Part shown: piece by piece, positions 38,538 to 48,408 of the stretch
Position numbering within the stretch: position 1 is the first letter of the stretch
Layout: every line of letters starts with the position of its first letter
Source of the DNA: Nannocystis bainbridge
GTDB lineage: Bacteria; Myxococcota_A; Polyangia; Nannocystales; Nannocystaceae
Length of the DNA stretch: 64,000 bases
Reading direction: 5' to 3'
NCBI RefSeq assembly: GCF_028368995.1
Contig: NZ_JAQNDL010000001.1
Location: 2,816,001-2,880,000 of the forward strand
Program-made: the position numbers and the translations under genes
The notes under the pieces: model-generated
The model's database searches: none
What the model was told of the DNA's origin: nothing
The model's input: the letters and a program-made list of their open reading frames with translations, nothing else

Positions 38538-38566
38538 AGAATGCATGCACCCCCCACCCCTGTCAA
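38538..38566 (-). promoter_or_regulatory. Sigma70-type promoter TTGACA-N17-CATTCT
   Basis: Perfect -35 (38566-38561), 17-nt spacer, -10 CATTCT (38543-38538), pointing toward the PcfJ-like gene. Confidence 0.6.
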
Positions 38567-38841
38567 GCATCCTTCGCCGATGGGCGCCCCCGCTCACCGC
38601 ATCCGCATCCGTCGACCGCCCGTCCACGCCACATGTTCCAAAGGACATATTGCTGATTCTCGCCATGAGCGTCACGGCTCCTCGCCGCGATCGACCCCCG
38701 AGCGATGCGCATCGTCTTCACCAGGCGTCGCCCGTGCGACCCACCCCGCCCACAGGCACCCGCACGATCGCCGCACCAGGATGCGCCGATCTGCGAACTG
38801 CGACGTGCCGCCCCTGCGCCGCTGATGCTACGTTCGCCGCG

Positions 38842-40350
38842 ATGCCTCGCCTCGCCCTCGCGACCCTCGCCCTCCTCCTCGTCGCTTGCGGCGACGACCC
38901 AGCGACCTCGACCGGCGACACCAGCGGCCCCGGCCCCTCGAGCGGCGCGCTGACGACGGGCACCGGCGGCGACGACCCCACCGGCACCACCACCGGCACG
39001 AGCAGCGACCCCGTCACCACCACCACCGGCACCATCACCACCGAGCCCGGCACCACCACCGGACCGGCCACCACCGACGCTCCCGTCACCGGCACCACCA
39101 CCGATCCGGGCACCACGGGGCCGGACCTCGAGACCGACGGCACCACCGCCACCACCGAGCCCCTGCCCGACCCGATCTGCACCGACCCGCCCGCCTGCGC
39201 CGCCGTCGCCCCCGCCGCCACCGAGCATCACCTCGGTCTGCTCGACGGCTGCGCCTTTGCCCTCGCCCCGAACGACTTCGCGGCCGGCATCGCCCGCGCC
39301 GACGCCCTGCTCGCGCGCACCGGCACGGCCGTCGACATCGAAGCCGTCCTCGGTCAGCTCAACCGCACCGGCGTCCCCGGCCTCTCCGCCTACCAGGCCG
39401 ACCGCATGAAGAACCACGACTACGTCGGCTTCCGCTGGGACGCGGGCGACGGCGCCGTCGACTACTGGTACCCGCAGGGCATCACCGGCTCGAGCGACGC
39501 CCGGGCCGATCACGAGATCGCCGGCAAGCGGCTCCTGTTGGTGTCCTGGTACCACAAGATCGAGCTCGGCCCGAACGACCCGCCGGCCAAGGGCGTGCGC
39601 CTCAGCCTGGTCGACATCACCGACCTCGACGCCATCCGCTACCGCCACCTGCTGCTCGTCACGCCGACCGGCGACGGCCCCGACGTCAATTTCGTCGCCG
39701 CCAACACCAAGAGCGGCGACGCCCTGCACGCCGGCGGGATCGCCTGGGTCGGCGACCGCCTCTACGTCGCCGAGACCTCGGCCGGCTTCCGCGTCTACGA
39801 CATGTCGCGGATCTTCGAGGCCACCGCCACCGACGACGACGCGGCGATCGGGATCGCCGGCGGCGAGGTCAACGCTCACAGCTATCGCTACGCGGTGCCC
39901 GAGATCGGTCGCTACGCCCTCACCGCCGACTCGTGCAAGTTCCGCTTCTCCTCGGTCGCGCTCGACCGCAGCGCCGACCCGCCGGTGCTCGTCACCGCCG
40001 AGTACCAGACCGACCTGACCGGCCGCCTCGCCCGCTGGCCGATCGACCTCGCCAGCGCCGCGCTGGTCGAGAGCGGCGGCCATGTGTTCGCCCACGACGC
40101 CGCCATCACCGGCCAGTCCCGCACCCAGGGCGCCGTCACCTACGAGGGTGTCTATTACATGTCGTGCTCGAGCCAGGCCCAGCAGTGGGGCCGGCTCTAC
40201 CGCAACCTCCCCGACTCGACCAGCGAGATCACCGCCTGGCCCGACGGCCCCGAAGACCTCTACGTCGAGCGCGACCTCGAGCTGATCTGGACCGCCGCCG
40301 AGCACCCGAACAAGCGCGTCACCCTCGGCATCCCCATGCAAGGTTACTGA
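38842..40350 (+). CDS. Lipoprotein with Thr-rich linker and a beta-rich domain of unknown function
   Basis: LALLLVA-C; WYPQGITGSSDA, LVSWY, KGVRLS.VD, YRHLLLV, HAGGIAW, GPEDL. Confidence 0.85.
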   Translation: MPRLALATLALLLVACGDDPATSTGDTSGPGPSSGALTTGTGGDDPTGTTTGTSSDPVTTTTGTITTEPGTTTGPATTDAPVTGTTTDPGTTGPDLETDGTTATTEPLPDPICTDPPACAAVAPAATEHHLGLLDGCAFALAPNDFAAGIARADALLARTGTAVDIEAVLGQLNRTGVPGLSAYQADRMKNHDYVGFRWDAGDGAVDYWYPQGITGSSDARADHEIAGKRLLLVSWYHKIELGPNDPPAKGVRLSLVDITDLDAIRYRHLLLVTPTGDGPDVNFVAANTKSGDALHAGGIAWVGDRLYVAETSAGFRVYDMSRIFEATATDDDAAIGIAGGEVNAHSYRYAVPEIGRYALTADSCKFRFSSVALDRSADPPVLVTAEYQTDLTGRLARWPIDLASAALVESGGHVFAHDAAITGQSRTQGAVTYEGVYYMSCSSQAQQWGRLYRNLPDSTSEITAWPDGPEDLYVERDLELIWTAAEHPNKRVTLGIPMQGY

Positions 40351-42588: not shown

Positions 42589-43098
42589 ATGCCCGTCCGC
42601 CGCGCCGTCCCGTTCGCCCTCGCCCTCTTCATCACCACCGCCTGCGGCGGCGAGGCCAAGAAGGCCGAGCCCGAGGTCAAGGCCGCGGAGCCGGCCAAGC
42701 CCGCCGAGGACGACGCGATCGCCAAGCGTCGGGCCGAGCGCGAGGCCAAGGCCAAGGCCGAGAAGGACGCCGAGGACGCGCGCGTCGCCGCCGTCGCTGC
42801 CCTGGCGACCCTCCCGCCCAAGCTGCCGAAGGACATCAAGAAGGCCTGCGACGCCGTCGCCGACGCCCAGCTCAAGTTCTTCGAGCGCATGTACGAGGGC
42901 GCCGAGCTCGACAAGCTCAAGGCCGCCCAGGGCACCCAGCGGCCGATGACCGTCAGCGGCTGCACCGGCCTCGGCAGCCTCGAGGCCGCCGCCTGCCAGG
43001 TCGCCGCCCTCGACGCCGCCACCGACAAGACCCTCAAGGCGTCGATCTCCGACATCATGCGGGTCTGCATCGAGAAGTACGCCAAGCCGGCCGGCTGA
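42589..43098 (+). CDS. Lipoprotein, hypothetical
   Basis: ALALFITTA-C lipobox, K/E/A-rich helix, four further Cys. Confidence 0.85.
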   Translation: MPVRRAVPFALALFITTACGGEAKKAEPEVKAAEPAKPAEDDAIAKRRAEREAKAKAEKDAEDARVAAVAALATLPPKLPKDIKKACDAVADAQLKFFERMYEGAELDKLKAAQGTQRPMTVSGCTGLGSLEAAACQVAALDAATDKTLKASISDIMRVCIEKYAKPAG

Positions 43099-43408
43099 TC
43101 GCCTGTCCCTTCGCACCTGTCGCAAGGGACATGTCCCTCGGGCCCGCTCAGCCCGAGGACCACGAGCGCGCGCCGCCGCGTCGCTCGTGGCGACATCGCG
43201 CCCCTTCTGCGGTCGTCGCCCGCCCCGGCACGACGCGCGACTCGACCGCCCGGACCGACGCGCACACGCTGCCCGGCCCCGAAGAGCACCGCGCCTCCGC
43301 CGGGTCATGTCCCGCGCACACGGCCCCGGAGCCCACGCGACCCCTGTCGCCCCGACCCGCGCGCCTGCGCCCGCGCGCGGCCCCTCGCTGGATGCTACGC
43401 TCCCGGCC

Positions 43409-43813
43409 ATGCACGACCTGCGCGACGTCGGCGGCACCCCCGGAGGTCTCCCCGTCTTCCTGCTCGGCCTCGGCATGGTGGGCGCCGGCGCCTACTTGCT
43501 GCTCAACCAGGTCATGGTCCACAGCGGCTACTGGGGCTTCTGGGGCGACAACACCTTCGGCCTGACCCTCCTGCCGCTGCTGTTCGGGATCGGCTTTTTG
43601 TTTTACAGCGCGCGCTCGTTCTTCGGCTGGGCGCTCACGGGCCTCGGCGCGGTCTTCATCTTCGTCGGCATCATCGCCAACCTCGAGATCCATTTCCGCC
43701 CGACCACCCTGTGGAACACCCTCGTCATCCTCACCCTGCTGGTGGGTGGCCTCGGCCTCGTGTTCCGGTCCCTGCGGCCGATGCGGGCCCGCCCTCGCGG
43801 CCGCGCGCATTGA
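43409..43813 (+). CDS. Small multi-TM membrane protein
   Basis: GGTPGG start motif followed by four hydrophobic segments. Confidence 0.85.
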   Translation: MHDLRDVGGTPGGLPVFLLGLGMVGAGAYLLLNQVMVHSGYWGFWGDNTFGLTLLPLLFGIGFLFYSARSFFGWALTGLGAVFIFVGIIANLEIHFRPTTLWNTLVILTLLVGGLGLVFRSLRPMRARPRGRAH

Positions 43814-43845
43814 CAGGGCGGGCGGCCGCGTGGTGCCATCGCTGC

Positions 43846-44403
43846 ATGGCCCCGCCGCCCTTACTGCCTACGACGCGCCTCTACGCCTGCCCCGCCTGCC
43901 GCGAGCACATCAAGTCGGACACCTCGAGCTGCCCTCACTGCGGCGCCGAGCTGCACCGCGAGGGTCGGCTGGCTCGCGCCGCCTCGGCGGTGATGGTGAC
44001 CCTGGCGCTCTCGGGTTGCCCCGACAAGGGCGACGACACCATGGGTGGTAGCGACTCGAGCACCGGCAACACCACCTCGGGCACGGACACCGGCACCGGC
44101 ACCGACACCACCACCGGCAGCACCACCGAAGGCAACTCCGGCACCATGACCGAGTCGCCGACCTCGGCCGAGCCCGAGTACGGCGTGCCCGCCACCGACA
44201 CTCTCGGCACCACCACCAACACCACCTTCGAGCCCGACTACGGCGTCCCCGGCACCACCACCGAGAACACGACCGAGACCACCGAAGGCAGCACCACCGA
44301 CGACACCGACACCGCCACCGTCGGCGAGCCCGAGTACGGCGTGCCGCAGACCAACACCTCCCTCGAGCCCGACTACGGCGTCCCCGGCACCACCGGCGCG
44401 TGA
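43846..44403 (+). CDS. Zn-ribbon lipoprotein with four EP(E/D)YGVP motifs; putative radical SAM substrate
   Basis: CPAC...CPHC, hydrophobic stretch with LALSG-C, then AEPEYGVP, FEPDYGVP, GEPEYGVP and LEPDYGVP in a Thr-rich chain. Confidence 0.85.
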   Translation: MAPPPLLPTTRLYACPACREHIKSDTSSCPHCGAELHREGRLARAASAVMVTLALSGCPDKGDDTMGGSDSSTGNTTSGTDTGTGTDTTTGSTTEGNSGTMTESPTSAEPEYGVPATDTLGTTTNTTFEPDYGVPGTTTENTTETTEGSTTDDTDTATVGEPEYGVPQTNTSLEPDYGVPGTTGA

Positions 44404-44413
44404 CCGCCCCGAA

Positions 44414-44547
44414 GGACAGGTCCCAAAGGCCCTGTCCTTCGCCACATGCGCGCACGGACATGTTCTGAACATCCGTCGCACGCGCCTGCCCGATCGGACA
44501 TGCTCCTCGCAGCATGCCCCCGAGGACATGGCCCTCGGGGCATGTCC
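44414..44547. repeat. Two 14-bp-phased decamer arrays
   Basis: Decamers at 44414/44428/44442/44456 and 44482/44496/44510/44524/44538. Confidence 0.9.
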
Positions 44548-44557
44548 CGAACCATCC

Positions 44558-45814
44558 TCACCCCGCCAGCACGGGCAGCCGCACCGTCGTGCGCGGCGGC
44601 GCCATGTCCCACGGCTCCTCGACGATCTCGTACTGGCCAAAATCGTAAGGATCGCCGGGAGCGGCCTGGCGCAGGACCACCCGCTCGCGCAGCCCCTTGC
44701 GCTTCATCTGCGCCGCCCGGTAGTAGCAGAACGGATTGTTGCCGCGCTTGCCGATCGCGCTGTGGGCGGTGAACGAGCAGCCCGCGCGGCACACCTCCGC
44801 GTAGTAGCAGGACTTGCAGAAGCCCCACAGCTCGTCCGTCCCGCGCTCGCGGGCGAACGCGATCTCCGGCGCGTCGTTCCAGATGTCCTCGATCGCCGCC
44901 GTCTTCACGTTGCCGCCGGTGTACGGGGCCGTCGGCAGCGACGGGCAGCCCTTGATCGTCCCGTCGGACTCGATCCCCATCACGAACTTGCCGGCCGAGC
45001 AGCCCTGCCAGTAGCTGTCGGGCGAGCCCGGGCGGGTGCGCAGCAGCTGCTCGTGCGGCCCGAAGTAACCGAGGTTGTTGCCGAGCCGCACGTGGAACGC
45101 CCGCTCCCACGCGATCCCCTGCGCCGCCGCGCGCTCCTGGCACCAGCGCTGGATGTCGGCCAGCGTGTCGATCACCTCCATCACCATGTACGGCTCGAGC
45201 AGCCAGTCCGGGCGGTCGGCCGCGCGGCCCATCGGCGCCGTCATCTGCGCTCGCCACACCGCCACCCCCGCGTCTGCCAGCAGCTCCGCCGTCTCGCGCA
45301 GCACATCCTTGTTGAGCCGGTTGATCTGCGAGTTCGAGGTCACCAGCATGCCCGCCGCGCGGGCGTTGCGGATCCCCTTCAGCGCCGCCGCGTGGCTCCC
45401 CGGGCTCGCGCGCAGCGTGTCGTGCGGCCCCTCCGGCCCGTCGACCGACACCCCGATCGCCGCCAGCCCTGCCTCGCGCAGCTTGCGGCAGCGGTCCTGC
45501 GTCAGCCCGCGGCCGCCGGTCTGCATCGTCACGCGGATCCCCGCCTGCGTCATGTGCTGGATCAGCCGATAACAATCGCCGCGCAGGTACGCCTCGCCGC
45601 CGATCAGCGTCACCTCGCGGCTGCCGAGGCGCACCAGCGCGTCGGCCACCTCGAGCAGCTCCTCGGTGTTCAGCTCGTCCGGTCGCGCGTCGCCGGCTCG
45701 CGACCCGCAGTGCGCACATTCGTGGTCGCAGCGCAGCGTCGTCTCCCACACCACATAGATCGGCCGCGGCCGCATCAGGTCGTCGGGACGCAGCGCGCGT
45801 GCAGGCGAGTTCAT
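44558..45814 (-). CDS. Radical SAM/SPASM peptide maturase, PlpX (splicease)-like
   Basis: VVWETTLRCDHECAHCGSRAG (CxxxCxxC), IGGEAYLR, GNNLGYFGP.E, SPASM WQGCSAG...GIESDG.IKGCPSL and CKSCYYAEVCRAGC...NNPFCYYR. Confidence 0.92.
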   Translation of the reverse strand: MNSPARALRPDDLMRPRPIYVVWETTLRCDHECAHCGSRAGDARPDELNTEELLEVADALVRLGSREVTLIGGEAYLRGDCYRLIQHMTQAGIRVTMQTGGRGLTQDRCRKLREAGLAAIGVSVDGPEGPHDTLRASPGSHAAALKGIRNARAAGMLVTSNSQINRLNKDVLRETAELLADAGVAVWRAQMTAPMGRAADRPDWLLEPYMVMEVIDTLADIQRWCQERAAAQGIAWERAFHVRLGNNLGYFGPHEQLLRTRPGSPDSYWQGCSAGKFVMGIESDGTIKGCPSLPTAPYTGGNVKTAAIEDIWNDAPEIAFARERGTDELWGFCKSCYYAEVCRAGCSFTAHSAIGKRGNNPFCYYRAAQMKRKGLRERVVLRQAAPGDPYDFGQYEIVEEPWDMAPPRTTVRLPVLAG

Positions 45815-46045
45815 GCCGCGATGCTACCCCATCGCCTCGCCGCTCGCCTCGGGTCGCGGATCTCTGTGCGTCTCCAGGAGCGGCATCGCAAGCGCGAGCC
45901 CGGCCATGTCTGGCGCCGCCCATGCAGCGAAGTCGGGGGCGCAGCACCGCGACCTCGCGCAATCACACCTCCTCTCCCTCCACGTGGCGAGCACCGCCCT
46001 CGCTACCGCGAGCTCGCCCCCGCGACATCGACGTCGTGCCGGCGC

Positions 46046-47212
46046 TCACCCGCCCGAGTCGGCGTCCTCGGCGTCCGGCCCGGGCGGGGTCGCGTCGTCG
46101 AGATCATCCAGATACCCGTGGGGCAGCGCGACCTTCTGCGGCGGCCCGCTCTTGCCGCGCACGATCTGGGCTGCCGCCGGGAACGGCTCTGTCGGGTCGA
46201 CTTCGCCCAGCAGCGCCCGCAGCTCCGCCAGTCGACTCGCCTGCATCAGCTTCGGCACCACCGGCGCCGCGCTGACGAACCCCAGCGTGTACCAGCGCGC
46301 GTGCTTGCGGAACGCCGCCATGGCTGGCTCTTCGGACATCCACGCGCACAGCCGCTCCGCGTGCTCCAGCATGATCGCCCACACCTCGCCCAGCGTCGGC
46401 GGCGCCGGCGGCGGCGCGCCGGCGAACGCGGCCGCCAGCTCCGCGAACAGCCACGGCCGACCCAGGCAACCGCGCCCCACCACCACCCCGTCGCAACCTG
46501 TCTCTCGGACCATGCGCAGCGCGTCGCTGGCCTCCCAGATATCGCCGTTGCCGAGCACCGGGATCGTGCGCACCGCCTGCTTGAGCGCCGCGATCGCCTC
46601 CCAGCGGGCCGAGCCCGAGTACAGCTGCGCGGCCGTCCGCGCGTGCAGGGCCACCGCTGCGCAGCCCTCCGCCTCGCCGATCGCCCCCGCCTGCAGGTAC
46701 GTCAGCAGCGACTCGTCGATGCCCATGCGGAACTTCATCGTCACCGGCACCGGGCCCGCCGCCTTCACCGCCGCTCGCACGATCGCGCGCAGCAGGTTGG
46801 GCTTGACCGGGATCGCCGAGCCGCCGCCCTTGCGCGTCACCTTGCGCACCGGACATCCGAAGTTCAGGTCGATGTGATCGACCCTGCCTTCGCCGACCAG
46901 CACGCGCACGGCGCCGGCGATCGTCGCCGGGTCGACGCCGTAAAGCTGCAGGCTGCGCGGCGACTCGTCGGCGCCGAAGTCCGACAGCTGCAGGCTGCGC
47001 GCGTCGCCGCGCACCAGCGGCCCCGCCGTGATCATCTCGCTGACATACAGGCCCGCCCCGAAGCGCCGGCACAGCGCGCGGAACGGATAGTTGGTGATGC
47101 CCGCCATCGGCGCCAGCACCACCGGCGGCCACACGCGCAGCGGACCTAACTGCAGCGCCGACGCATCACCCGCCTCGCGCCTCGCCTCCGTCGTCGTCAC
47201 GGCCGCGCTCAT
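46046..47212 (-). CDS. dusB: tRNA-dihydrouridine synthase DusB family
   Basis: VLAPMAGITN, SEMI, IDLNFGCP, KFRMG, LHART, GNGDI, VVGRG.LGRPW. Confidence 0.9.
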   Translation of the reverse strand: MSAAVTTTEARREAGDASALQLGPLRVWPPVVLAPMAGITNYPFRALCRRFGAGLYVSEMITAGPLVRGDARSLQLSDFGADESPRSLQLYGVDPATIAGAVRVLVGEGRVDHIDLNFGCPVRKVTRKGGGSAIPVKPNLLRAIVRAAVKAAGPVPVTMKFRMGIDESLLTYLQAGAIGEAEGCAAVALHARTAAQLYSGSARWEAIAALKQAVRTIPVLGNGDIWEASDALRMVRETGCDGVVVGRGCLGRPWLFAELAAAFAGAPPPAPPTLGEVWAIMLEHAERLCAWMSEEPAMAAFRKHARWYTLGFVSAAPVVPKLMQASRLAELRALLGEVDPTEPFPAAAQIVRGKSGPPQKVALPHGYLDDLDDATPPGPDAEDADSGG

Positions 47213-47325: not shown

Positions 47326-48408
47326 ATGAGAATTGAATTGATGGCCCGGGAAGCCGCGTTCGCGCTCCTGCTCGCGACCGCCTGTGGCGGCAGCAACAAC
47401 ACCACCGCCGGCGTCGACGGCACCGACACGCAGGCCAGCACCACCGACACCAGCGGCGCCACCGCCGGCGATCCGACCGGGGGCGTCAGCGACAGCGAGA
47501 CCGGCACGCCGACGACCACCGCCGGCAGCAACTCTGCCAGCGACAGCGACGCCACGGCCACCACCGGCGAGACCGCGTCGACCGGCACCACCTCGACGAC
47601 CAGCGAGACCGGGCCCGACACCACGACCTCGACCACGTCGCCCGCGACCACCGACACCACCACCACCGGCGAGACCGCGACCACCGACACCACCACCATG
47701 GGCGTCGAGGACACGGACACCAGCAGCACCACCGACGGCGGCTCGACTCTCGGCACCACCGAGCCCGACACCACCACCGGCGACCTCCCGTGCGGCACCG
47801 TGCTCAAGGCGACGATCCGCGACTTCGCCTTCTCGCACCCCGACTTCGAGAAGTACTCCGGCAACGGCGCCTACCTCGGCCTCGTCCAGCAGGACCTCGG
47901 CCCCGATCAGAAGCCCGTCTACGCCCACCCCGGCCCGACCCCGCAGACCAGCGGGCCGGCGGCGTTCGCCCAGTGGTACAACGACGTGCCCGGCGTCAAT
48001 CACACGTTCCAGGTCGACCTCCCGCTCACCGAGGTCCAGCCCGGCATCTACCAGTTCGCCGACAACACCTTCTTCCCGGTCGACAACCTCGGGTTCGGCA
48101 ACGAGGGCCAGCCCAACAACTTCGCCTTCACCACCGAGATCCACACGACCTTCTTCTACAACGGCGGCGAGGTCTTCACCTTCACCGGCGACGACGACGT
48201 GTGGGTGTTCATCAACGGCAAGCTGGCCCTCGACCTCGGCGGCCTCCACTCCCAGTTGCAGGCCTCGGTCAACCTCGACAACAGCGCGGCCGCCCTCGGC
48301 ATCACCAAGGGCATGTCCTACTCGCTCGACGTGTTCCACGCCGAGCGCCACACCAACGAGTCGAATTTCCGCATCGACACCACGATCGCCTGCTTCGTGC
48401 CGATGTGA
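47326..48408 (+). CDS. Fibro-slime (PA14-related) domain lipoprotein
   Basis: LLATA-C, Thr-rich linker, IRDF...HPDFE, FFP.D, NFAFTTE, FTFTGDDDVWVFING.LALDLGGLH, FHAERH. Confidence 0.92.
   Translation: MRIELMAREAAFALLLATACGGSNNTTAGVDGTDTQASTTDTSGATAGDPTGGVSDSETGTPTTTAGSNSASDSDATATTGETASTGTTSTTSETGPDTTTSTTSPATTDTTTTGETATTDTTTMGVEDTDTSSTTDGGSTLGTTEPDTTTGDLPCGTVLKATIRDFAFSHPDFEKYSGNGAYLGLVQQDLGPDQKPVYAHPGPTPQTSGPAAFAQWYNDVPGVNHTFQVDLPLTEVQPGIYQFADNTFFPVDNLGFGNEGQPNNFAFTTEIHTTFFYNGGEVFTFTGDDDVWVFINGKLALDLGGLHSQLQASVNLDNSAAALGITKGMSYSLDVFHAERHTNESNFRIDTTIACFVPM

Follow-up and report, generated by a model that had tools for sequence, protein, structure and literature searches.

A stretch of 64,000 nucleotides from Nannocystis bainbridge (contig NZ_JAQNDL010000001.1, positions 2,816,001 to 2,880,000), to which we refer as the window, contains two genes that face each other with their stop codons. 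The first, P0001, encodes a small protein in which a zinc ribbon precedes a lipoprotein-type signal and a tail with four x-Tyr-Gly (xYG) sites; the second, P0002, encodes a radical S-adenosylmethionine (SAM) enzyme with a SPASM domain that resembles the spliceases, the enzymes that excise tyramine from such sites. The G+C content of the window is 72%, and the host genome comprises 11 Mb. The features of the locus, in window coordinates, are:

43846-44403, + strand: putative precursor gene P0001, 185 amino acids, with a leader carrying a zinc ribbon, a lipoprotein-type signal, a Thr/Gly/Asp-rich tail and four xYG sites
43852-43881, + strand: N-terminal stretch PPPLLPTTRL (residues 3-12), kept in the orthologue alignment and a predicted enzyme contact
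43888-43941, + strand: zinc ribbon CPAC-x10-CPHC (residues 15-32), its four Cys invariant, Pfam models sub-threshold
43966-44019, + strand: residues 41-58, with a positively charged n-region, a hydrophobic core and the lipobox L-S-G-C (Cys58, invariant)
44170-44190, + strand: xYG site 1, EPEYGVP (residues 109-115, Tyr112)
44230-44250, + strand: xYG site 2, EPDYGVP (residues 129-135, Tyr132)
44326-44346, + strand: xYG site 3, EPEYGVP (residues 161-167, Tyr164), docked on the enzyme barrel in the best complex run
44365-44385, + strand: xYG site 4, EPDYGVP (residues 174-180, Tyr177)
44404-44557, no strand: gap of 154 nucleotides between the convergent stop codons
44558-45814, - strand: enzyme gene P0002, radical SAM/SPASM, splicease-like, 418 amino acids
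45707-45730, - strand: radical SAM cluster motif C29-x3-C33-x2-C36, conserved without exception in the alignment (79 of 79 enzymes)
44804-45001, - strand: SPASM domain (residues 272-337, Pfam match) with auxiliary Fe-S cysteines

The start of P0001 at the ATG at 43846 is supported by the orthologues, which share the initial MAPPPLLP, and at the related locus L010 the frame opens only 11 codons upstream of that Met. A preliminary description of this DNA, made from its letters, had recognized a radical SAM/SPASM gene that converges on a protein of 185 residues, a CxxC...CxxC ribbon placed before a lipoprotein signal, and four EP(E/D)YGVP motifs in a Thr/Gly/Asp chain; each of these elements is present as described. 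It had also remarked that genes for an RRE, a protease, a transporter or PlpY are lacking next to the pair. Our inspection of the neighboring genes bears this out: neither a protease, transporter or RRE gene nor a small gene of the PlpY kind, as found in type I splicing systems, adjoins P0001 and P0002.

P0002 matches the Pfam models Radical_SAM (PF04055; 78 bits) and SPASM (PF13186; 33.2 bits), only 28 residues precede its CxxxCxxC motif, and Pfam detects no RRE-like domain in the protein. In the alignment of 79 enzymes, the SPASM residues C272, C290, C333, C336, C342, C346, and C363 are invariant along with C29, C33, and C36. Two NCBIfam models stand out among its matches: TIGR03913 (GDL motif peptide-associated radical SAM/SPASM maturase; cut-off 591.75) with 419.3 bits over model positions 2-392 of 477, and TIGR04103 (nif11-class maturase 3; cut-off 725) with 416.9 bits and an E value of 6.7e-125. 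We take TIGR04103 to be the family of the splicease PlpX. The third-best family, heme b synthase, follows at 157.8 bits, about 260 bits lower, and the models for PqqE and MftC reach only 88.9 and 104 bits. Because its scores lie below the curated cut-offs and yet far above those of the next family, we assign P0002, as judged from its sequence, to a wider TIGR04103/TIGR03913 clade and to neither of the two curated families. PlpX itself carries IPR026482, according to one report (PMC11002830).

A quick tree unites the Nostoc TIGR04103 reference, the TIGR03913 references and all enzymes with ribbon-bearing partners in one clade with a support of 100 in the Shimodaira-Hasegawa-like approximate likelihood ratio test (SH-aLRT). 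The claim of the preliminary description that the motifs of the enzyme fit the splicease clade is supported with regard to this broad grouping; it does not extend to membership in either curated family or to a position as sister of the spliceases. P0002 is 44% identical to the annotated Nostoc TIGR04103 enzyme and 46-47% identical to the Azospirillum TIGR03913 enzymes (references obtained by tblastn of plasmid records), a range much like the 43-48% that separates it from its four paralogues in the same genome. Its closest named relatives come from Nannocystis pusilla (97%) and N. exedens (94%). The best 80 loci of the enzyme-alignment search, all from Myxococcota or a few Acidobacteriota, include no cyanobacterial homologue, and the TIGR03913 cut-off is exceeded in none of 151 Myxococcota genomes and in none of 14 control genomes. 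Among solved structures, SkfB is the best profile match (97 bits), and all such matches are distant radical SAM enzymes.

Two further groups of enzymes were noted in passing. Three metagenome-assembled genomes of Acidobacteriota (L135, L137, L143) encode homologues at 44-46% identity outside the Myxococcota; the detector used finds no ribbon partner within 2 kb of them. A more distant radical SAM clade (38-41% identical), noted at L034:2611-3858 (- strand) and L036:2691-2996 (+ strand), adjoins partners without a zinc ribbon, of which one carries CDDGIDNDGDG...C repeats, each followed by Y[AG]xP, and the other ends ...PPYGAPDYGAPVYGF.

The architecture of P0001 is best read from its counterparts beside other enzymes of this group, hereafter called partners. 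Invariance across the diverse partners (49 of 49) is confined to the ribbon cysteines C15, C18, C29, and C32 and the lipobox Cys58. Even so, the best Pfam zinc-ribbon score for P0001 is 23.7 bits against a gathering threshold of 27 (PF13248 and relatives), and scans of the partner proteins against NCBIfam return no family, only weak generic zinc-ribbon and lipoprotein matches. P0001 has no match to a Nif11/NHLP leader in Pfam or NCBIfam and none to DUF1843 in Pfam. Weak matches to the C-terminal portion of the TIGR03913 model occur in ten of the 49 partners. The sequence L-S-G-C58 conforms to the lipobox pattern [LVI][ASTVI][GAS]C after a hydrophobic segment, and G, A or S directly precedes the lipobox Cys in each of the 51 partners (among 53 unique ones) in which this Cys was found, a preference that was not built into the partner-analysis script.

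The tails are hypervariable apart from their Tyr sites. Gly or Ala follows 98 of 103 tail Tyr residues (87 G, 11 A), although G and A together make up a share of only 0.237 of the tails; this count includes close relatives, so that its entries are not independent, and the partners had been preselected for at least one Y[GA]. The consensus around the tail Tyr is E-P-[DE]-Y-G-V-P. Among orthologues of P0002 with at least 64% identity, the xYGVP sites are kept in the partners and the linker between the sites varies freely. On a wider scale the partner types match the enzyme clades in our quick trees: YGVP, CYG directly after the lipobox, KYGGP, PLYGP, TYAGP, LPYGAP, and a Cys-rich type. The genome scan for further PxYGVP-type proteins that the preliminary description had proposed turns up P.YG[VIL]P in ten stop-to-stop frames of at least 40 amino acids (six frames, whole genome), and more than one copy occurs only in the frame of P0001; we regard the motif there as no mere coincidence.

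The Cys-rich partners, which we observed at G000:C1:910094-911152, C1:1324985-1325722, L052, L053, and L064, combine a single F/I-Y-G/A site with a large C-terminal domain behind it that holds 15-29 Cys; one of them weakly matches the MXAN_6577-like cysteine-rich proteins of NCBIfam (E 7.1e-5).

The pairing of the two genes is not a matter of chance. All five enzyme copies of the host genome adjoin a protein built of ribbon, hydrophobic segment, Cys and tail, and the tails of the paralogous pairs contain Y[GA] in the forms TYAGPDE (three times), FYGGCP, IYAAPD, and LPYGAPP. An enzyme homologue (E <= 1e-60) is encoded in 32 of 41 related genomes, in up to seven copies each. Co-occurrence of the two genes in other genomes, which the preliminary description had left to be examined, proved to be wide: automated detection places a partner at 45 of 61 enzyme copies, with a detector that is stricter than inspection by eye and missed partners at L027 and L030. 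In a separate collection of species-representative loci it does so at 48 of 80, to which L087 was added by eye. Among further copies from other genera, a partner is present in 17 of 20 cases (L054, L066, and L067 are the exceptions), and in other Myxococcota classes this holds for at least 10 of 12 loci, whose partners display, for example, MALYGLPP, PLYGLP, and AMYGAPP. Two inserted genes separate the enzyme from its partner at L009 and L014, over a distance of about 1.6 kb, and at four loci (L115, L133, L144, L153) a ribbon partner lacks Y[GA]. The two genes may be convergent or arranged in tandem on either side; since their orientation varies, adjacency rather than an operon is what is kept.

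One radical SAM gene often precedes two tandem partner genes (L015, L017, L041, L048, L060, L065), and in L104 there are five. Since none of these tandem partners lacks a ribbon, a lipobox or xYG sites of its own, one enzyme may serve several substrates.

All lineages of the enzyme clade adjoin x-Y-[GA] precursors. In Nostoc sp. C057, the gene for the nif11-class peptide radical SAM maturase 3 follows that of a Nif11 precursor ending ...GSIALYGLPPELF, with a core ALYGLPP, and is itself followed by a gene for 71 amino acids. In Azospirillum, three DUF1843 peptides, starting ...RMLYGGA, ...IKPYGVA, and ...RPMYMAT, precede the TIGR03913 enzyme, and the DUF1843 peptides of Aureibacter start VLYAAG, PMYAAS, and QPYGAG. 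The enzymes of Azospirillum, Ralstonia, and Aureibacter carry at their C-terminus, and that of Tropicibacter at its N-terminus, a fused ribbon of the pattern C-x2-C...C-P-[HF]-C, as in P0001. From these fusions the ribbon can be recognized as an accessory module of the enzyme clade that, on sequence grounds, is carried by the substrate in Myxococcota. There is a parallel in the known systems described in PMC11414181, where binding and activation of the splicease fall to a leader helix or Y protein, which can be fused to the enzyme. In the Tropicibacter oceani plasmid (L163), the gene for the fused-ribbon enzyme lies near those for a second radical SAM enzyme, a phosphotransferase, a trypsin-like peptidase and an M23 peptidase; a precursor was not recognized in this run of genes.

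When viewed against characterized systems, the pair combines familiar and deviating traits. With the type I systems (PlpX/PlpY/PlpA, and PcpXYA of Pleurocapsa; TIGR04103) it shares a radical SAM/SPASM enzyme and a precursor motif of the form P-x-Y-G-h-P. This kind of motif is common to P0001 and the known substrates, since it recurs in the PlpA splice tags PIRPLYGLPI and PIRPGYGLPI (PMC10533398, Table 1), in the Nostoc precursor and in the MALYGLPP and PLYGLP sites of other Myxococcota. In contrast to type I, P0001 has a zinc ribbon and a lipoprotein signal instead of a Nif11/NHLP leader, its X residue is Glu or Asp rather than Met or Leu, its four sites lie within the low-complexity tail of a protein, and neither a Y protein nor a gene for a peptidase-containing transporter (PCAT) or a protease is found near the pair, whose enzyme remains under the cut-off of 725. 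The binary type II systems of Rheinheimera (RhaX/RhaA, RcsX/RasX) likewise consist of two components, manage without a Y protein and use an N-terminal element of the precursor for binding or activation. PMC11414181 reports such binary spliceases, names the leader helix as the activator and describes an AlphaFold2 model with the XYG motif in the active site. Compared by description, the element is an alpha-helix in type II and a zinc ribbon with a Pro-rich N-terminal stretch here, and the products of type II are small secreted peptides. The TIGR03913 systems of Azospirillum, Ralstonia, and Aureibacter come close in enzyme identity (46-47%), in their x-Y-[GA] peptides and in a ribbon of the same kind. 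However, the ribbon sits there on the C-terminus of the enzyme and not on the substrate, the substrates are helical peptides of 56-64 amino acids that look cytoplasmic and whose Tyr lies close to the N-terminus, the match of P0002 is limited to positions 2-392 of the 477 in the model, and P0001 has no DUF1843 match. PqqE/PqqA and MftC/MftA also pair a SPASM radical SAM enzyme with a Tyr of a ribosomal precursor; they differ in their RRE/PqqD-type partner, in motif and chemistry, and in the low scores that their enzyme models give with P0002.

A structural view of how the two proteins might meet comes from a prediction in which the enzyme alignment, the partner alignment, three 4Fe-4S clusters and SAM were folded together. 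Three runs gave ipSAE values, an expression of the model's own confidence and no measurement, of 0.89, 0.90, and 0.90, compared to 0.00 for the best of three controls, and they share at least 47% of their contacts. The mark used for this score is attained by 116 of 157 solved complexes and by 2 of 215 mismatched pairs, a rough guide here since that calibration was made without ligands or user alignments; no solved complex of a like kind was found, SkfB being the best match to the enzyme profile in the PDB. The confident contacts of the partner are predicted at residues 3-8, 10, 12-14, 18-21, and 30, that is, in the N-terminal stretch and the first ribbon knuckle, and at residues 161-168 (EPEYGVPQ). 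On the side of the enzyme they involve the strand ends near the SAM cluster (20-24, 69-71, 96-98, 159-161, and 186-190), the conserved stretch 245-257 and parts of the SPASM domain. The suggestion of the preliminary description that the zinc ribbon acts as a recognition element thereby gains support, both from this model and from the ribbons fused to related enzymes.

These computed observations lead us to the view that P0002 is probably an enzyme of the tyramine-splicease type with P0001 as its dedicated substrate, that splicing precedes export, and that signal peptidase II cleaves off the leader; our inference covers the chemistry, the steps of export and processing, and the role of the product. 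In the cytoplasm, the enzyme would bind the N-terminal stretch and the zinc ribbon of the precursor, and the EP(E/D)YGVP sites of the disordered tail would then be threaded into its barrel. At each site, the tyramine part of the Tyr would be removed and a ketoamide derived from Glu or Asp left behind. The modified chain would subsequently be exported by means of its lipoprotein-type signal and lipidated on Cys58, and the cut by signal peptidase II would take off the ribbon 'leader' as well. Removal of the leader in this way and export via the lipoprotein route would explain why there is no dedicated protease or exporter gene nearby. As far as can be judged from the genes themselves, the pair likely yields membrane-anchored proteins with reactive ketoamide residues. 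The product would be a lipid-anchored flexible chain with electrophilic ketoamides, whose most likely role might be that of a covalent trap or inhibitor of Ser/Cys proteases with a preference for Glu or Asp; the other enzyme-substrate pairs of the genome would present other residues at the X position. This function as a protease trap is the least secure step of the proposal and rests on the reported requirement of the ketoamide for protease inhibition (PMC11626197).

A broader version of the proposal, which we advance tentatively and hold to be possible but not probable, sees in the Myxococcota a family of self-contained splicing systems with up to seven pairs per genome, each with a substrate-borne ribbon and the Sec/Lgt/signal peptidase II route, which together would furnish a lipid-anchored panel of ketoamides. 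The ribbon would have moved from the enzyme onto the substrate as a docking or activating leader, and the residue before the Tyr (Glu/Asp here; Leu, Met, Val, Lys, Thr, Ala, and Cys elsewhere) would set which protease is trapped.

A number of observations weigh against the splicing proposal, and some of them bear on the chemistry while leaving the pair itself intact. P0002 scores under both curated cut-offs (416.9 vs. 725; 419.3 vs. 591.75). The quick trees, which contain a single TIGR04103 reference that is annotated and not assayed and which carry SH-aLRT support only, leave the main lineages inside the clade unresolved and recover P0002 neither as the sister of the splicease family nor nested inside TIGR04103. 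Some partners have Y-A (11 of 103 Tyr) or Y-S (L144, L153) sites, so that the chemistry may not be uniform, and a DYG site was left unmodified by the characterized splicease RcsX (PMC11626197), so that acidic X residues may be poor substrates. The same points, together with the fact that the SPASM enzymes PqqE and MftC treat Tyr differently, speak for another Tyr chemistry performed by the same pair, be it a C-C or C-O crosslink, beta-hydroxylation or cleavage without re-joining. We nevertheless regard this as rather unlikely. The PqqE-like and MftC-like families lie more than 300 bits below TIGR04103 and TIGR03913, the P-x-Y-G-h-P motif matches known splice tags (PMC10533398) and the Nostoc precursor, and the Glu at position -3 is unconserved in other partner types, so that a Glu-Tyr link of the PqqE type cannot be general. 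Two further modifications were considered and rejected: a thioether (sacti-type) link between Cys58 or a ribbon Cys and the Tyr, given that the partners have a fixed Cys count and anywhere from 1 to 5 YG sites, and sulfation or phosphorylation of the Tyr in the acidic EPEYG, which leaves the dedicated radical SAM neighbor unexplained.

Other objections to splicing of P0001 by P0002 concern the relationship of the two proteins. A folded ribbon before a lipoprotein signal is unusual, an N-terminal extension of 40 residues is atypical, and a 2023 review of leader-removing proteases is silent on signal peptidase and lipoproteins. The partner fold in the complex model is uncertain (pLDDT 43-46), about 11 close orthologues (L082-L084, L088, L090, L092-L097) have no partner within 2 kb, and the EPEYGVP-type partner of G016 lies on another contig. 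It could be argued that the zinc-ribbon protein is a membrane tether or regulatory subunit and no substrate, bringing the radical SAM enzyme to the membrane to act there on another target: the ribbon belongs to the enzyme itself in relatives, the most confident predicted contacts fall on the ribbon region, and four partners (L115, L133, L144, L153) have a ribbon and no Y[GA]. We consider such a role improbable, since Y-G/A is, besides the ribbon and the lipobox Cys, the sole conserved feature of the hypervariable tails (98/103), the flanks of the Tyr vary in step with the enzyme clade, enzymes with a fused ribbon adjoin separate small xY[GA] peptides, and one YG site sits on the enzyme in the complex model. 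The convergent arrangement, which makes a common transcript impossible, and the housekeeping neighbors PyrF and Dus could even suggest that a cofactor-maturing radical SAM enzyme and an ordinary myxobacterial lipoprotein are adjacent by chance, the more so as Thr/Gly/Asp-rich lipoproteins are common in the window and heme-related SPASM families occur among the weaker matches of P0002. This explanation is strongly disfavored, to the point of being hardly credible, by the five paired copies out of five in the genome, by the 45 of 61 and 48 of 80 related loci with varied orientations, and by a complex score of 0.90 as opposed to 0.00 for the controls.

The sole hint at expression is weak. One metatranscriptome contig (X17, 250 nucleotides) matches 44078-44321 with 3 differing letters and 3 gaps; another (X20, 619 nucleotides) matches 44607-45178 with 38 differences and, because of these differences, stems from a relative. 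Neither is counted as evidence; DNA carry-over is possible, and many short matches at 44080-44120 are of low complexity.

Spliceases and their wide spread are already known. The survey of Scott et al. 2022 (Chem 8:2659), according to papers that cite it, reportedly lists 27 characterized and 939 predicted splicease systems from 189 genera. Our literature search, outside of which that survey lay, found no paper on splicease precursors of the zinc-ribbon or lipoprotein type. To our knowledge, tyramine splicing has so far been seen in small secreted peptides and engineered proteins, and the likely natural substrates here are lipoprotein precursors, each with its own enzyme. If our proposal is true, then backbone-edited electrophilic residues would be native to the bacterial envelope, beyond the secreted peptide natural products; the ribbon would exemplify a recognition module that is swapped between enzyme and substrate in the course of evolution; and removal of a leader by signal peptidase II would require no dedicated protease. 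The many enzyme-motif pairs would moreover supply orthogonal splice tags for protein engineering as well as ketoamide sequences for protease-inhibitor testing.

The pair is surrounded by genes for PyrF, a beta-lactamase-family protein, Dus, and lipoproteins of no family. A scan of 43000-46300 found no promoter- or terminator-like sites, a result that is uninformative at the given G+C content. Directly upstream of P0001, a small multi-pass membrane protein of no Pfam family is encoded at 43187-43813 (+ strand). Two other genes of the window specify lipoproteins without xYG sites in which a long Thr/Gly/Ser/Asp-rich linker follows the lipobox Cys: the one at 38545-40350 (+ strand) has a C-terminal domain of 300 amino acids without a Pfam family, and the one at 47326-48408 (+ strand) a PA14 domain.

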